Shown one piece after another: positions 1-6,776 of a stretch of 32,000 nt of DNA. The stretch lies in the NCBI RefSeq assembly GCF_000008645.1, contig NC_000916.1, positions 1,080,001 to 1,112,000 on the forward strand. Reading direction: 5' to 3'. Source of the DNA: Methanothermobacter thermautotrophicus str. Delta H (GTDB lineage Archaea > Methanobacteriota > Methanobacteria > Methanobacteriales > Methanothermobacteraceae). The translations under genes and the position numbers were made by a program. The notes beneath the pieces are model-generated. The model had not been told where the DNA came from, ran no database searches, and was given only the letters and a program-made list of their open reading frames with translations. Within the stretch, counting starts at the first letter, position 1; each line of letters starts with the position of its first letter.

Positions 1-50
1 CGGTTTCTCCCTCCTTCAGTGGTGCTCCATCATTCTCTTTCATGTCAATT

Positions 51-146
51 CAGCCCCATTTAGCATTAGCTCATCAACCATTAACTTGATCTGGGAGGTT
101 GAGTTTAGTCAGCCAGCCCCATATTTAGCATTAGCTCATCAACCAT
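51..146. repeat. Direct repeat: 31 nt (51-81) versus 33 nt (114-146), identical apart from a 2-nt indel. Copy B encodes the C-terminus of the 105..1001 gene; copy A lies downstream of its stop.
   Basis: Read directly: cagccccatttagcattagctcatcaaccat versus cagccccatatttagcattagctcatcaaccat. The flanks (82-113 versus 147-180) look weakly similar, suggesting a decayed ~63-nt tandem duplication. Confidence 0.85.
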
Positions 147-1001
147 CCCCCTAAATAGCTTTTTAAGGTGGGGATTGAAGATCACTGCGGGTAATCCGTT
201 GACCAGAGCATCTGTAAATGCCAAATCATAGGGTATTATTCCCATGATGGGTATCTCATTTCTATCTGCAAGATCTTCTATCTCAGCTGCGATCTCATGA
301 TTTAAATCATATTTATTGATTATTATGGAGTGTGGGATCCCAAAATGACTTACAAGTTCTATTGCACGTTTAGAGTCATTTATAGCTGCCTTTGTAGGTT
401 CCGTTACTATAATGGCCCGGTCACATCCCTTAACTGATGATACCACAGGGCAGCCAATACCGGCTGCTGAATCCAGGAGAGCCAGATCCATGCCCTCCGC
501 TCTTCCAATTTCAGAGACCTTTCTCCTCAGAGAATCCACAATCTTTCCTGAGCCTCTCTCACCAATTTTAAGATGGCCGGATACCACAGGGAAACCGTAA
601 TCAGACTTAAAATAGCAAATCTTTCCTGTATCCACTTCTTTGATGTCTATCGCTCTATCAGGGCATATATATGCACATGCTCCGCATCCTTCACAGAGAA
701 ATTCATTTATTTCAGGTTTTGAGTTCTTTGCACTCCATTTTATTGCATTGAATCTGCATACCCTCACACATTTCTTTCTTGATTTGCATTTTTCAGCCAT
801 TAAGAATGCCTTTTCAGAGGCCCTTATGGTTTCGCACTCCACATCCCCTGAAGATCCCATGATGAGTGCCAGATTGGGTGTGTCCACATCGCAGTCTCCA
901 AGGATTATTTCTGCTCTATCAGCAAGTAGAACAGCCATTGAAGCCACTATGCTGCTCTTTCCAGCCCCACCCTTTCCTGAGAGGATGCATACCTCCTTCA
1001 C
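105..1001 (-). CDS. MinD/ParA-superfamily P-loop ATPase with an inserted 4Fe-4S ferredoxin domain
   Basis: ORF 105..1022. Deviant Walker A SGKGGAGKSS lies near the N-terminus. Ferredoxin motif CEGCGACAYICP plus a second Cys group (CKSRKKCVRVC). The start is probably GTG at 1001, which has AGAGGTG 5 nt upstream and sits 1 nt after the upstream stop, rather than TTG at 1022. Confidence 0.8.
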   Translation of the reverse strand: MKEVCILSGKGGAGKSSIVASMAVLLADRAEIILGDCDVDTPNLALIMGSSGDVECETIRASEKAFLMAEKCKSRKKCVRVCRFNAIKWSAKNSKPEINEFLCEGCGACAYICPDRAIDIKEVDTGKICYFKSDYGFPVVSGHLKIGERGSGKIVDSLRRKVSEIGRAEGMDLALLDSAAGIGCPVVSSVKGCDRAIIVTEPTKAAINDSKRAIELVSHFGIPHSIIINKYDLNHEIAAEIEDLADRNEIPIMGIIPYDLAFTDALVNGLPAVIFNPHLKKLFRGMVDELMLNMGLAD

Positions 1002-1002
1002 A

Positions 1003-1878
1003 TTAACACCTCTGCATCTCAAGTAACCCTGCGACAGTATCTATTCCTGGAACATTAAGGGGTTCACCCCCTGAATAGGCCTCCATTAAATCCTTAGAAT
1101 ATTCTATTTCAGCCACAATGGGCCTCCCTGTTTCTCTGGAAACCTCGAGTACCGGGTCTGCGTTACCGATTCCTGCACGGTTGAGGATAATACTTGAAGT
1201 TACATCCAGCCTCTCAAGTAGCTCAAGTATCAGCTTCAGGTCATGACTCCCAAAGGGTGTTGGCTCTGTAACAGCAAAGGCAAGGTTAGCATCCATGATG
1301 GCATGTATAACATTACAGTGGACTCCTGCTGCTGTGTCAATGATTATGAAGTCCATATCATGGTTCTCTCTCGCATTTTTCATGAGTGAGTCCACCAATC
1401 GTGCGCTTGATTCTATATTCACAGTTGTTTCCCCGGAAAGTAACCTGAAATTTCTTCTAATTTTCTCATCATAATTTTCAGGGAGTTTGCCATCATAAAG
1501 GAATCCTGCGACCATATCCTCATCCTTTATTGCATTATTTCTGCATGAAAGACTGCATGTCCCACAGCCACTGCATCTATCCCTGACAAGAATTGGGTGC
1601 CTGCCCTCCACAAATACGATTGCATTTTTCCTGCACACCTCTGAACATTTACCACACATGGAGCAAGCTGAAAAATCAAAGGAGGGTATCTGAAGAGTTA
1701 CTTCATCTGTTTTTCTTCTCTGCACGGACAGGATTATGTGGTCATCTGGACACTCAACATCTGTGTCCACCAGGAGCACCCTGAATTTATCGGCGAGGGC
1801 TATGGCGAGAGAACATGCTATGGTTGATTTTCCTGTTCCTCCCTTTCCCCCGGTTATTGCTACCATTAAGGGCTTCAT
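1003..1878 (-). CDS. MinD/ParA-superfamily P-loop ATPase with an inserted 2x[4Fe-4S] ferredoxin domain (paralog of 105..1001)
   Basis: N-terminal Walker A TGGKGGTGKST. Two CxxCxxCxxxC motifs (CSMCGKCSEVC, CSGCGTCSLSC). GGTG SD before the ATG at 1878. Confidence 0.8.
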   Translation of the reverse strand: MKPLMVAITGGKGGTGKSTIACSLAIALADKFRVLLVDTDVECPDDHIILSVQRRKTDEVTLQIPSFDFSACSMCGKCSEVCRKNAIVFVEGRHPILVRDRCSGCGTCSLSCRNNAIKDEDMVAGFLYDGKLPENYDEKIRRNFRLLSGETTVNIESSARLVDSLMKNARENHDMDFIIIDTAAGVHCNVIHAIMDANLAFAVTEPTPFGSHDLKLILELLERLDVTSSIILNRAGIGNADPVLEVSRETGRPIVAEIEYSKDLMEAYSGGEPLNVPGIDTVAGLLEMQRC

Positions 1879-1908
1879 CGAAACACCGGCTCATCATGGA
1901 TTTAGTGT

Positions 1909-2283
1909 CTATCTTCTTCTCCTGCCACGGCCACTGCCTGGTGATCGTATCTCCTCAAGATTTCCCTCTGTGAAGAGCTTGAGATTCTCCTCAACTGATG
2001 TGCCGGTTGCCCGGTAAATTTTTATGCCCAGTTCATTCAGAACCTCAAATGCGTTTGGACCTGGTGAAGAAGCTATAACTGCCTTCACGCCATTATTTGC
2101 AATTATCTGGGCTGTCCTTATACCTGCTCCTCCTGAAGCTGATGCTGAAGGGTTCTCGATGACTTCGGAGGATTCTATATTACCCTTCTTCATTTCAACA
2201 ATCATGAAATAGGGAGCTCTGCCAAAAAATCTACTGACCTCTGATCCCAGATCGGTTCCAGAGGACGCTATTGCTATCTTCAT
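1909..2283 (-). CDS. Stand-alone NifX/NifB-C-terminal-type (dinitrogenase FeMo-cofactor-binding family) domain protein
   Basis: 124 aa. MKIAIASSG...SRFFGRAPYFMIVE...GGAGIRTAQIIANNGVKAVI is typical of the family and matches my memory of MTH1175. Its ATG overlaps the upstream stop by 1 nt (TAATG). Confidence 0.8.
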   Translation of the reverse strand: MKIAIASSGTDLGSEVSRFFGRAPYFMIVEMKKGNIESSEVIENPSASASGGAGIRTAQIIANNGVKAVIASSPGPNAFEVLNELGIKIYRATGTSVEENLKLFTEGNLEEIRSPGSGRGRRRR

Positions 2284-3101
2284 TAATTAGCACCACCATC
2301 TTTAAGGTATTTCGCCAGTTTATTGAAGATCTTCACCATCTCATTGTTGATGTATGAACTGGCTGATGATTCATTATCCCCGGATATCCCTGTTTCAAAG
2401 GGGATTTCACCCAGAAACTGGAGATCAAATTTGTCTGCAAGATATTTTCCACCATCTTTACCGAATAGAAATACCTTTTTGCCGCATTCTGGACACTGGA
2501 GATATGACATGTTCTCTATGATTCCCAGGACTGGAATCTTCAGGTGATTAACCATGTTGATACATTTTTCAACATCATGGATTGAAACTTCCTGAGGGGT
2601 TGTGACTATGACCACACCGTCAATGCCAGGAATGGACTGGAGAACCGTCAGTGGCTCATCCCCTGTTCCCGGAGGGTTATCCACAATTAAAACGTCGATT
2701 CCTTCCCAGTTAACATCTGCAAGTAGCTGTCTGATGGCTCCTGTCTTTTTTGGTCCCCTCCATATGACCGGTGTGTCCTCTGATGGTAAGAAAAACTCTA
2801 TGGACATTACAGTTGCACCCACTGGTGTGGGTATGGGGTTTATAAGATTTCCTGTCAGGGTGATCTCCGGTTCCCTGACACGCATCATCTTCGGGATATC
2901 AGGGCCGTGGACATCTGCATCAAGTACACATACACTGTAACCATTCCTGCTAAACTCTTCAGCAAGTTTTACTGTTACTGTGGACTTCCCAACACCTCCC
3001 TTTCCGCTCATAACAACGATTTTATGTTTTATTTTGGACAGGGCCCTCACGATTTTCACGTCCTGTTCCATTATGGCCAGTTTTTGAGCATCTTCAGTCA
3101 T
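2283..3101 (-). CDS. mrp: Mrp/NBP35/ApbC-family Fe-S cluster carrier ATPase
   Basis: Walker A SGKGGVGKST. Conserved CPECG (CxxC) motif. Family-typical blocks (VDNPPGTGDE, GIIENMSY). The ATG at 3101 with GAGGTG SD is preferred over the TTG at 3113. Confidence 0.85.
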   Translation of the reverse strand: MTEDAQKLAIMEQDVKIVRALSKIKHKIVVMSGKGGVGKSTVTVKLAEEFSRNGYSVCVLDADVHGPDIPKMMRVREPEITLTGNLINPIPTPVGATVMSIEFFLPSEDTPVIWRGPKKTGAIRQLLADVNWEGIDVLIVDNPPGTGDEPLTVLQSIPGIDGVVIVTTPQEVSIHDVEKCINMVNHLKIPVLGIIENMSYLQCPECGKKVFLFGKDGGKYLADKFDLQFLGEIPFETGISGDNESSASSYINNEMVKIFNKLAKYLKDGGAN

Positions 3102-3109
3102 GATGCACC

Positions 3110-3460
3110 TCAATGACGTCCGTTGCAGGGATCTGCATCTTCTCTGAGCTCACCCTTCTTGAGGAGGTTGAGTGTCTCAGCCACTGTTCCCCTGGCACCC
3201 ATCAGAACATCAACTCCATGGGTTCTGAGAAGGTTAATGGCCTTTGAACCCATATTTGTGCATATGAGGAGATCTGCATCGGAATTTACCACAATCTCTG
3301 CGGGTGTTAGTCTTCCTCCGGTGTGTCTTCCCTCTATTTTTATTATTTCCAGTTCATTTACTTCGTCATCATAAAAAGCGAATAGGGGCGTTTTTCCAAA
3401 GTGTTCTGAAACCTTTGAATCCATGCCCCTTTCTTCCATGACGGGAATACATATTTTCAT
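3110..3460 (-). CDS. Second NifX-like (FeMo-cofactor-binding family) domain protein
   Basis: The tracked ORF 3110..3637 overlaps the upstream gene. The internal ATG at 3460 (MKICIPVMEERG...SEHFGKTPLFAFYD) has a GGAGGA SD and sits 17 nt after the DUF134 stop. Family-typical N-terminus. Confidence 0.7.
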   Translation of the reverse strand: MKICIPVMEERGMDSKVSEHFGKTPLFAFYDDEVNELEIIKIEGRHTGGRLTPAEIVVNSDADLLICTNMGSKAINLLRTHGVDVLMGARGTVAETLNLLKKGELREDADPCNGRH

Positions 3461-3476
3461 TTTATGGTCCTCCTGT

Positions 3477-4046
3477 TCAGTCGGCGCCGCACATTGGTGC
3501 TCCGCACTTAGGACACTTCTCTGTTCTGCAGGGTACGCCTGGTGTTTTAGGTGCCTCGTATCCACATTCAATGCATTTGCAGACACGTGGAGCTCCTCGT
3601 CCAGCACCAAAGCCCCTTCCGTATCCGCCTCTGCCAAACCTTGGTATTGTTTCGGCTGATACGACGTTTATGTTCTCTGAACCGCAGTCCGGACATTTTT
3701 TGTATTCCTTTTCAGGTGAGATCCATTCGAACTGGCAGTCCATGCATTTGTATCTTCTTCTGTCTGTGATGTAATCACCTCCCTTCAGTATTATTGGTCT
3801 GCCCTCGACCAGAGCCGCTGCTATTTTACCCCGTGCTGATGTCAGGGTTCTGTGGAATGTTGGCTGTGATATTCCCATTATCTCAGCGGCCTTTTTCTGT
3901 TTGATGTCATGGTAGTCCCTCAGCCTTATTGCCTCAAATTCATCGAGGGTTATCTCAACCCCTGTCTCCTCGTCACTGGCTTCCGGAGAAAATGTGACCA
4001 CACGGGGTTCTCCAAGAATTCTTCTGAATCTTCTCGGTCTAGGCAT
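3477..4046 (-). CDS. DUF134-family predicted DNA-binding protein with a C-terminal extension carrying two CxxC...CxxC zinc ribbons and a Gly/Arg-rich linker
   Basis: MPRPRRFRR...F.P start and HTH-like segment KQKKAAEIMGISQPTFHRTLTSARGKIA are typical of DUF134. The C-terminus has CMDC..CPDC and CIECG..CPKCG separated by RFGRGGYGRGFGAGRG. Confidence 0.75.
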   Translation of the reverse strand: MPRPRRFRRILGEPRVVTFSPEASDEETGVEITLDEFEAIRLRDYHDIKQKKAAEIMGISQPTFHRTLTSARGKIAAALVEGRPIILKGGDYITDRRRYKCMDCQFEWISPEKEYKKCPDCGSENINVVSAETIPRFGRGGYGRGFGAGRGAPRVCKCIECGYEAPKTPGVPCRTEKCPKCGAPMCGAD

Positions 4047-4068
4047 GTTTTGAATATATATTCAAAAC
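4047..4068. promoter_or_regulatory. Perfect 22-bp palindrome GTTTTGAATATATATTCAAAAC abutting the ATG of the DUF134 gene; candidate operator
   Basis: All 11 base pairs of symmetry checked by hand. It lies between a TATA-like box (4071-4080) and the start codon (4044-4046). Confidence 0.6.
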
Positions 4069-4070
4069 TT

Positions 4071-4080
4071 GTATATATAG
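4071..4080 (-). promoter_or_regulatory. Candidate TATA box (CTATATATAC on the minus strand) with an A-rich BRE-like flank (GCAAAAA)
   Basis: Centred ~29 nt upstream of the ATG at 4046, with no SD in between. This implies a leaderless or near-leaderless transcript for the six-gene operon. Confidence 0.45.
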
Positions 4081-4153
4081 TTTTTGCACCAGCACCATGC
4101 AATCAGCTGAAAAGCCAGACCCCTCCCTAAATGGCTGTCCCACAAGCCCCTCA

Positions 4154-5188
4154 TCATATCTCCTTAAAAGGGACCAGGTCAATAACCGTTATCTCACAGG
4201 ATGATCCGAGACGTACAGGTGGACCCCATGTACCTGTGCCCTCCGAAACATAGAGGAACCCCCCTGAATCAGAATAAAGTCCCCTCAGAAATGGGAACAT
4301 CAGTCCCACGATGATGTTGAAGGGGTAGAACTGTCCGCCGTGGGTGTGACCAGAAAGCTGAAGGTCAACACCACGCTCCCTGGCATCCTCCCAGTCCACC
4401 GGCAGATGATGGAGGAGCAACACTGGCCTATCCTCATCAAATTCAAGTAAGTCGAGTATGGCCGGGAGCGAATGCCTCTCCATAGAATAACCAACACCTA
4501 TTATCTGTATACCCTCAAATTCGATGACAGACTGATCAATACACATTATGCCTGCATCAGAAACAGTTGATCTGAAGTCACCCGAATAGGTATCATGATT
4601 ACCCGAAACAAAAAATATCGGTGCTCCTGTTTCAAGGGATGATATAATGCTGGAATCCACAGGCCTTGAACCATCCAGAAGGTCCCCTGTTATTAAAACC
4701 GCTGCCGCTTCAACCCTCCTGACAGCCTCGGATACCTCTTTAAGGAAACCAGCAGATCGTACCGTTCCCAGGTGAATGTCTGATAGCTGGACGAACCTCA
4801 AGCTCTCCTCAACAGGAAAGGGAATCTCAACACGCTTAACCTCAATTTTTCTGGCCCTGAATACACCATATGAGACACTGAGTGCAGCCAATGATACAGC
4901 CAGGATCTTCAAGCATGGAAGATCCAGGAAGAACCATATAAACTGAACTAGGGCCCAGCCCGTGAGGAGATAGATCAGAAAGACCAGCCACAGCATTGAA
5001 AAAATGTAGGTGACCCTGGAAATGGGGTTCGGTCTCTCCCTCTCAAAAAGGATTGATGCCGGGAGAAGGATGGTCAGGGGGATGCTGATAAACCCCAACC
5101 CAAGAAATTCCAGAGCAAGGCTGTTTAGAAGGTAATAGGCAAGTGTGATGAAGGTGAGGAAAACAGAGACCTGGATCTCCCTCTTCAT
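4154..5188 (-). CDS. Membrane-anchored metallophosphoesterase (calcineurin-like, COG1408-type)
   Basis: About 4 N-terminal hydrophobic helices, then phosphoesterase motifs LSDIHLG, TGDLLD, SGNHD, GHTHGG. Confidence 0.8.
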   Translation of the reverse strand: MKREIQVSVFLTFITLAYYLLNSLALEFLGLGFISIPLTILLPASILFERERPNPISRVTYIFSMLWLVFLIYLLTGWALVQFIWFFLDLPCLKILAVSLAALSVSYGVFRARKIEVKRVEIPFPVEESLRFVQLSDIHLGTVRSAGFLKEVSEAVRRVEAAAVLITGDLLDGSRPVDSSIISSLETGAPIFFVSGNHDTYSGDFRSTVSDAGIMCIDQSVIEFEGIQIIGVGYSMERHSLPAILDLLEFDEDRPVLLLHHLPVDWEDARERGVDLQLSGHTHGGQFYPFNIIVGLMFPFLRGLYSDSGGFLYVSEGTGTWGPPVRLGSSCEITVIDLVPFKEI

Positions 5189-5235
5189 GGAATCACTGAA
5201 CCATTGAAACCATGGCTGAATCGCCCGGTATTCAT

Positions 5236-5271
5236 TGAATCACTGAATCACTGAATCACTGAATCACTGAA
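5236..5271. repeat. Tandem 8-nt repeat (TGAATCAC) x4 plus a partial fifth unit
   Basis: Perfect units at 5236-5243, 5244-5251, 5252-5259 and 5260-5267. Related copies at 5190-5200 (gaatcactgaa) and 5217-5224 (tgaatcgc). The stop codon of the 5256..6173 gene lies inside the array. Confidence 0.9.
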
Positions 5272-6173
5272 CTCTCAGGGAGGAGCTTCACCAGGATGTA
5301 GTCATACATCATGGACTTCCTGATCTCGGAGATATCCCCCAGCCGGTAATCAGATACCCTCACGTCGGCTATCTCCTCATGGTAGCGGTCATAGTTGAGT
5401 TTGACACGGACACCATCAAGCTGACTGGTGACAGGTGTCGGTGAGTACACCTCCTTTATGGCAGGTACCTGGTTCTCTATCTCGCTCTTCACAAGTATGG
5501 ATGGGACCAGAGGTGGATCAGCAGCCATATCGCGACTTCTCTTATCAAGGAGTCCCTCAACAACCTCCACAAGCTTCCTTAACGCTCGTATATCCTCTCC
5601 CCTCTTCAGCCTCCTGGGTATTCTTCCAAGTCCTCCAACGTAGGCGTCTGCACCTGGAAGATCCCTGAGGTCAATCTCGTCGGGGGAGCCGGTGACAACC
5701 ACCGGGATCTTTATGTCACTGAAGAGGTGGACCTTATCCTTTATGCACTGCTCAAAACTCCCCAGGGCGAACACTGCGAGGTCATGCTCCTCTATGAGCC
5801 TCTTCTCATCCTCAGATATTCTTGAAATGCCCTTACCCGCGCCACGGGCGAGTCCTATCATGTTATCCTTGGCACCGTACCTCCTGAGGTACTCTGATAT
5901 GTCACATGCAGAGTGGGGAAGGTGGTGCCTTGCCAGGGTCGGGGAGACAATGGCTATCTCGGTACCTGCCATGGGGGCCACCTTGATCTTCCCCAGGAGC
6001 TCCCTGGCCTTCTCCCTGACCTTATCCACATCATCTATTGGTACCGCCAGGGTGAGTATCAGGTCCATCTGAAGCATGTTCTCCTGGAGCACAAAGCCCC
6101 CCAGGTCCTCAATAAGTTCCTTCATCTCCTCATGGCGATGCACACCGCCCTGATACGTTAAGGTTTCATACAT
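5256..6173 (-). CDS. mmp7: Methanogenesis marker protein 7-like (McrC paralog)
   Basis: 305 aa. The block [24 protein letters not shown] resembles, from memory, the McrC block AMSPGRRHITKPVCEIT. Size and adjacency to a ~180-aa partner fit Mmp7. Needs HMM confirmation. Confidence 0.6.
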
Positions 6174-6688
6174 AGTTTCCTCTCCAGATACCTGTACCTG
6201 AATAGAGCCCTCTTAACAGGGTCCAGGGGGAGGTTCCTGTGTGAGGGCACCCTTATATAGTCAAGTTCCATGTAGTCAGGACATACAGTGAAGTCAGCAT
6301 CCCCATCAACCACGCTGAAGCCCATGTCCTCCACGATCTCCCTTAAGAAATTTGAATAAACCCTTACTTTTATTTTGCTGTTCCTCTCCCTGAGCCGTGA
6401 GGGGTCATGCCACCATGGAGAGCAGACCTCAAAGTCAATCTCACTGGTTGATGAATACTTGAGACTCTCAGGGTCCCTTTCATGGATTGTCTTAAAGACA
6501 GTGCCCACCGCCTCCCTTATCTGGGGGAATGTGTTGAGTTTAAGTTTAATGGCCCCCTCCAGGGGTGTCTCAGAGAGTACGAAGGCAACATCTGCATCCT
6601 CGTCCTCAGGGTTCCTGCTAACCCGGTATCCCCTGACACCTGCAATCCTCAGTATCCCCTCACACATGGGTGTTGTGACGATCCTCAT
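6158..6688 (-). CDS. Conserved methanogen protein, possibly methanogenesis marker protein 17
   Basis: Its 3' end overlaps the start of the mmp7-like gene by 16 nt, suggesting translational coupling. The call rests on size and synteny only. The start is ATG 6688 (GGGTGA SD-like upstream) or GTG 6700. Confidence 0.4.
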
Positions 6689-6776
6689 GAATTCACCCAC
6701 AAGCCTATATATCTCATCAATAAATTTCTCTATAATTATTATTTATAAGGTGTGCTGATGAACTGAAGGTGTGGCA

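Follow-up and report, generated by a model that had tools for sequence, protein, structure and literature searches.

An ORP-type iron-sulfur gene block beside mmp7 in Methanothermobacter thermautotrophicus is probably an optional accessory module and not an obligatory L-cluster route

The left end of a 32,000-nucleotide stretch of the chromosome of Methanothermobacter thermautotrophicus str. Delta H (the window; positions 1,080,001-1,112,000 of 1,751,377 bp, genome label G000) carries mmp7, the gene for a subunit of the complex that activates methyl-coenzyme M reductase (MCR), and on the same strand a seven-gene block encoding NifX-like proteins, ATPases and a DUF134 protein. A preliminary description of the window had proposed that this block could deliver nitrogenase-type L-clusters to the activation complex. 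The block is instead probably an optional accessory Fe-S module of the type of the Desulfovibrio ORP complex, with its own promoter, and not an obligatory route for the L-cluster. This reading draws on the observed gene content and motifs, on the co-occurrence of a palindrome with DUF134 and on a patchy distribution. As a required route the supply line is largely refuted, because about 80% of the Methanobacteria searched lack the block, which has its own promoter and putative operator, and because its domains are of the ORP/IssA type and not the NifX type and it was not found beside mmp7 in any of about 40 loci from other methanogens. The features concerned are as follows, in window coordinates.

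1-43, minus strand: 5' end of a fusion of a CDF transporter to a NifX-like (ORP-type) domain, 407 aa, seventh gene of the operon, running off the left edge
105-1022, minus strand: P-loop ATPase of the MinD (Orp3/Orp4) type, 305 aa, carrying a ferredoxin insert
1003-1878, minus strand: MinD-type P-loop ATPase, Orp3/Orp4 type, with two complete [4Fe-4S] ferredoxin motifs
1909-2283, minus strand: MTH1175 (identical to PDB 1EO1), PF02579 protein of the ORP/IssA clade, 124 aa
2283-3101, minus strand: [4Fe-4S] carrier ATPase of the Mrp/ApbC/NBP35 type (PF10609, E 2e-89), its Walker A deviant, with a CPEC motif
3110-3460, minus strand: PF02579 protein, 116 aa, nearest to Thermotoga 1T3V/1O13, His-Phe-Gly kept
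3477-4046, minus strand: DUF134 helix-turn-helix protein with four CxxC pairs, putative regulator of the operon
4051-4064, no strand: palindrome core TGAATATATATTCA, 14 bp, the core of a 22-bp perfect palindrome at 4047-4068
4154-5188, minus strand: membrane-anchored calcineurin-like metallophosphoesterase (profile match)
5256-6173, minus strand: Mmp7, McrC-like subunit of the MCR activation complex, 305 aa (TIGR03274), ligands H84, C90 and C143
6158-6688, minus strand: MJ0786-family protein, 176 aa, overlapping mmp7 by 16 nt at 6158-6173

Gene order at the locus

Read along the minus strand, the MJ0786-family gene is followed by mmp7, the phosphoesterase gene, DUF134 and the gene for the 116-aa PF02579 protein; mrp, the gene for the 124-aa PF02579 protein and the two MinD-ferredoxin ATPase genes come next. 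This order, the 16-nt overlap, Mmp7 and the membrane phosphoesterase had all been correctly described, whereas the naming of an Mmp17-like partner, of NifH-like ATPases and of a six-gene operon did not stand. The operon has seven genes, the CDF-NifX fusion running leftward from window position 43. Beyond it, to the left of the window, lie mgm, mmp10 and then mcrBDCGA-mtr. The block thus sits between mmp7 on one side and the mcr operon on the other, and is linked to MCR more closely than could be seen when the preliminary description was made. Elsewhere in the genome atwA is found at 0.93 Mb and the Mmp17, Mmp3 and nifB genes at 1.70 Mb.

Distribution of the block

The main survey covered 121 Methanobacteria genomes at least 95% complete, which are related to one another and are not independent draws; Methanococcales, Methanopyrus and Methanosarcinales lay outside the named-genome searches. 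Both mmp7 and atwA were found in 119 of the 121 genomes but the MinD-ferredoxin gene in 24, which is not the distribution of a required component of MCR activation. Partial forms of the block are common. Four of eight congeners, G005 among them, keep DUF134 at the site and lack the other six block genes there, and 45 loci with mmp7 and mmp10 hold none of the block (25), DUF134 only (7), a part of it (6) or all seven genes (7). The Mrp orthologue was not found in three genomes at least 99% complete.

Among Methanomassiliicoccales the ATPase was detected in 23 of 61 genomes and not found in 38, and in the five checked it lies at least 58 kb from mmp7 or on another contig. In 37 loci from other methanogens mmp7 is mostly preceded by mmp17 or nifB, and no block gene was seen in the flanks, some of which are short. 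The caveat, raised at the outset, that similar clusters might occur in non-methanogens proved sound: the NifX-like/MinD/MinD trio is also present in Micrarchaeota (8 of 61 genomes), and mcrA was not found in the five Micrarchaeota genomes tested. On one Micrarchaeota contig (L097:3414-8553) the trio lies near genes for a DtxR-like repressor and a C_GCAxxG_C_C protein, just before ftsZ.

The block proteins

The ATPases are not NifH-like. Two are MinD-type with ferredoxin inserts and one is Mrp/ApbC; NifH was rejected, PF00142 giving 16-17 bits against a cut-off of 25 and the NifH cluster motifs not being found. The first Fe-S motif of the ATPase at 105-1022 has three of its four Cys, and the true start of this gene may lie a few codons inside.

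The three PF02579 domains of the block match only the MrpORP model and give no score to the NifX (TIGR02663) or NifB C-terminal models at E values up to 1. The 124-aa protein, MTH1175, matches the ORP of D. gigas (2WFB) with an E value of 4e-11 and has been placed in the IssA clade, separate from NifX, NafY and NifB (PMC5524996). The L-cluster carriers NifX, NafY and the C-terminal domain of NifB have the same PF02579 fold, and the His of their His-Phe-Gly motif has a cofactor role (PMC13128457, PMC8496260). This motif recurs in the 116-aa protein and the CDF fusion, the His being kept in 18 of 22 rows of the former family and 13 of 17 of the latter. MTH1175, unlike these carriers, has Phe in place of the cofactor-binding His, which was seen in 0 of 20 homologue rows with a parsed motif. 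With IssA, the thioferrate storage protein of Pyrococcus furiosus (PMC5524996), MTH1175 shares the clade and a short Gly/Arg tail; the tail is about 10 residues long against 70 in P. furiosus, and a storage role for MTH1175 is putative.

Paired MinD-ferredoxin ATPases, Mrp/NBP35 and PF02579 proteins are shared by the block and the Desulfovibrio ORP complex (Orp3/4/5/8/9; PMC6345978, PMC8359166). There, the ferredoxin ATPases Orp3 and Orp4 receive Fe-S clusters from Mrp in vitro (PMC6345978), and expression of the ORP cluster tracks redox potential (PMC8359166). A physical complex, metal-sulfide binding and cluster transfer have been shown for ORP only in Desulfovibrio (PMC6345978). Unlike the Desulfovibrio system, the block has Mrp and Di-Nase as separate genes, with no Mrp-Di-Nase fusion, and the score with the MrpORP model NF041136 is 318 bits, below the cut-off of 450. 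Its regulation would be by DUF134 in place of sigma54/OrpR. It also adds the CDF-NifX fusion and adjoins mcr.

Mmp7 and its partner

The 305-aa protein is a true Mmp7, in line with the preliminary description. It gives 525 bits with TIGR03274 (cut-off 349) over model positions 1-302, and an E value of 3e-101 with chain H of PDB 8S7V. The statement that L-cluster-like cofactors occur in the activation complex was also correct: three clusters on McrC/Mmp7 are similar to the [8Fe-9S-C] L-cluster and are probably products of NifB, their carbide being unproven (PMC12176620). NifX is not mentioned in the main text of that paper. Residues H84, C90 and C143 are present in the window Mmp7, at the same three ligand positions, and in the complex they hold or touch clusters II and III (PMC12176620).

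The 176-aa partner is not Mmp17-like. It has no TIGR03291 match, and comparison with the Mmp17 of the same genome gave a BLASTP E value of 0.26 and an HHalign value of 0.4%. The true mmp17 lies 620 kb away at G000:1,705,735, adjoining nifB, with 268 bits to TIGR03291 and an E value of 2e-21 to 8S7V chain G. Neither NCBIfam nor Pfam has a model that matches the partner itself, but PF27336 (MJ0786_C) is present in its homologues, which places it in the MJ0786 family. Of 67 mmp7 loci from Methanobacteria, 64 have the MJ0786 gene; it was found in 0 of 38 other mmp7 loci. In Methanobacteria mmp7 is split from the mmp3-6-5-15-17-(nifB)-mmp7 operon of other methanogens, in which mmp17 or nifB precedes it, and is coupled to MJ0786 instead.

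A search of PDB sequences with the MJ0786 alignment gave no match. A structure model (pLDDT 92) predicts a compact two-lobed, helical-backbone fold like that of metal receptors and nitrogenase subunits. The model resembles TroA/ZnuA-type metal receptors (Z 8-10, root-mean-square deviation 3.2-4.7), its likeness to nitrogenase-type subunits being slightly lower within the same ranges. Cys9 and His150 are 99-100% conserved in the family, and the protein has no hydrophobic stretch. In some archaea MJ0786 is fused to ScpB. The single longer MJ0786 protein found is a fusion to a mobile radical SAM protein, not to NifB, and looks incidental. The phosphoesterase gene is a conserved neighbour of mmp7 in most Methanobacteriales loci. 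In L049, L051 and L056, all of one genus, mrp alone directly follows mmp7, and mmp7 is detached from mcr.

A candidate operator in front of DUF134

The core palindrome TGAATATATATTCA lies between a TATA-like box and the start codon of DUF134 in loci across the order. It was found in 74 of the 121 genomes and DUF134 in 75; both occur together in 73, neither in 45, and three are discordant. A reversed-pattern control matched in 5 of 121. The M. thermautotrophicus genome has two exact copies and no one-mismatch copy. The second exact copy (G000:C1:853,599; L139:6599) precedes an MntR/DtxR-like gene followed by an AhpD-like gene, an arrangement conserved in genome G005. A conserved site at the gene's own promoter that tracks the gene suggests that the palindrome is the binding site of DUF134 as an autorepressor, and a candidate operator. 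DtxR/MntR was also considered as the binder; the palindrome tracks the presence of DUF134, the survey having covered DUF134 and not DtxR. A scan for sigma-70 promoters gave no excess over shuffled sequence, the sigma-70 model being unsuited to archaea.

Function of the block

The reading of the block as an ORP-type module supposes two separate units in one neighbourhood. Unit A (MJ0786-mmp7-phosphoesterase) would be part of a core methanogenesis region flanking mgm/mmp10/mcr in Methanobacteria, and unit B would be the module itself. By extension from Desulfovibrio, the two MinD-ferredoxin ATPases would be supplied by Mrp with ordinary [4Fe-4S] clusters. Binding or storage of simple metal-sulfide species would fall to the PF02579 proteins, and transport of metal to the CDF fusion. 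From its position, DUF134 would bind the palindrome between TATA box and start codon and is probably a metal- or redox-sensing autorepressor. Unit B would have taken its place next to mgm/mmp10/mcr early in the history of the class, and many piecemeal losses would have followed.

Several points weigh against this reading. Where present in Methanobacteria the block is usually near mmp7 (within 10 kb in 15 of 18 assessable genomes), and its position is thus inherited and not confined to one genus. The adjacency extends beyond Methanothermobacter; no block gene was seen in the flanks of the 37 loci of other methanogens. Even in the deepest-branching genome sampled (L168) a remnant of the block adjoins mgm/mmp10/mcr. 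The His-Phe-Gly motif is kept by the 116-aa protein and the C-terminal domain of the CDF fusion. The functions of the archaeal block members are predictions. Finally, DUF134, nearly always with the palindrome, lies directly upstream of atwA, the gene for component A2, in 40 of 121 genomes (loci L149-L167, L170, L187 and L189), a pattern left unexplained if the module has nothing to do with MCR.

DUF134 and atwA

Two copies of atwA occur in 32 genomes, and 30 of these are among the 40. In nine others atwA is single-copy, and in the last the one copy detected lies at a contig end. The linked copy is thus usually a second one. Two linked copies that were rescanned are full-length and above the TIGR03269 cut-off, those inspected retain Walker motifs, and identity between linked and unlinked copies of the same genome is 72-98%. 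In a tree the linked copies are scattered over more than one clade (six changes or more), which suggests repeated recruitment or gene conversion. Two further genomes have a one-mismatch palindrome 61-80 nt before their sole atwA, and in several Methanobacterium loci DUF134-atwA stands right behind mmp7. Thus for some members of the class there is a tie between the block's regulator and MCR activation, which leaves room for a conditional support role.

It is conceivable, if not likely, that the DUF134 regulon serves conditional reactivation of MCR: a change in metal or redox state would raise A2 together with proteins of Fe-S storage and repair, and the block would assist the activation complex but would not supply it constitutively. 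The atwA linkage argues for this, including the nine genomes in which it concerns the sole copy, as do the intact Walker motifs and scores of the linked copies, the two near-exact sites, the position behind mmp7 and the polyphyly of the linked copies. Against it, regulator and site are both missing in 45 genomes, and the positive genomes are kin and not independent samples. In M. thermautotrophicus itself atwA has no palindrome site (best match with four mismatches), and the only other exact site precedes the MntR/DtxR-like gene. DUF134 binding and its inducing signal are moreover putative. The supply line of the preliminary interpretation thus fails as a required route, and what survives is a link of another kind, a regulatory one to MCR activation, seen as DUF134 and palindrome before atwA in many relatives and not in this genome.

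In a literature search of incomplete coverage neither the regulation of DUF134 nor the duplication of atwA turned up as the subject of a study, and both the DUF134 palindrome and the DUF134-atwA linkage appear to be undescribed in the literature searched. DUF134, which has no described function there, gains a candidate operator and a candidate regulon that includes atwA. If real, this regulon bears directly on the transcriptional control of MCR activation.

The L-cluster route

That the NifX-like proteins and ATPases form a dedicated line carrying L-clusters from NifB to McrC/Mmp7, as first proposed, is very unlikely. In its favour, the position of the block between mmp7 and mmp10/mcr is conserved in three families, and two of its domains keep the His. 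Archaeal NifB is without a NifX domain, and how its cluster travels was called open in a 2026 review (PMC13474568). Against it, the partner is a protein other than Mmp17, none of the ATPases is a NifH and the domains are of ORP type. In addition, attempts to delete mmp7 and nifB failed in Methanosarcina (bioRxiv 10.64898/2026.03.18.712670), whereas the block was not found in about 80% of the Methanobacteria searched or in 38 of 61 Methanomassiliicoccales. As a required L-cluster route, the operon that looked the most obvious candidate thus drops out.

The probable maker of the L-clusters is the NifB whose gene adjoins mmp17, in the cluster mmp2-mmp3-mmp6-(123-aa gene)-mmp5-mmp15-mmp17-nifB (L003:4649-11154). 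This NifB has 288 aa, covers model positions 8-283 only and is without a NifX domain. A lone PF02579 gene near rps3Ae (G000:C1 ~1,460,695-1,461,017; L004, orthologues L057-L076) is syntenic in the genera examined. With its orthologue from G005 as query, 117 of 121 Methanobacteria gave matches and four genomes gave none, including one assembled as a single contig. It keeps the His and matches the NifB C-terminal model (E 2e-11), NifX (E 7e-10) and NafY (1P90, E 5e-10). In the M. thermautotrophicus sequence one base is deleted near codon 9, perhaps through a sequencing error. This NifX/NafY-type gene is a better carrier candidate than the block, as a lead only.

A wider scheme can be offered tentatively. 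DUF134 might be an undescribed archaeal metal or redox regulator that couples the ORP-type module to A2 in a conditional MCR reactivation regulon, with constitutive L-cluster hand-over by the lone NifX/NafY-type gene or by the MJ0786 protein with its invariant Cys and His. Both single genes can thus be named for testing in Methanothermobacter, which is genetically tractable.

It is hardly credible that adjacency and atwA link are positional accidents at an old insertion site by mcr that gathers mobile accessory genes: site content does vary between loci, one copy (L042) looks horizontally acquired and the distal genes have a G+C content of 0.43-0.46 against 0.53 for mmp7, but four families share the 14-bp site in its exact form, and DUF134-atwA persists at unlinked loci in many genera, also where atwA is single-copy.

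Further observations

The L042 copy (genome G010, L042:5350-12140) is a whole block accompanied by fragments of a broken mmp7 and of the phosphoesterase gene, 970 kb from the genome's own mmp7. Its DNA is 89% identical to the locus of another family (L041), and it is either a horizontal transfer or an assembly chimera. A plasmid search with the block ATPase gave one weak match.

An RNA contig at about 4590-6710 (three runs, one study) ends before the operon, and operon contigs start near 4035-4080. A run from another study bridges that gap; such contigs show neither transcripts nor levels, so they were not used as evidence. All four RNA runs have C at window position 5535, within mmp7, where the window has A, possibly a sequence error or a strain difference. 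The G+C content at third codon positions is 0.39-0.44 in the five distal block genes (window 105-3460) and 0.63 in mmp7. A short tandem array with an 8-nt unit, at window 5190-5267, covers the stop codon of mmp7 and the gap before the phosphoesterase gene.

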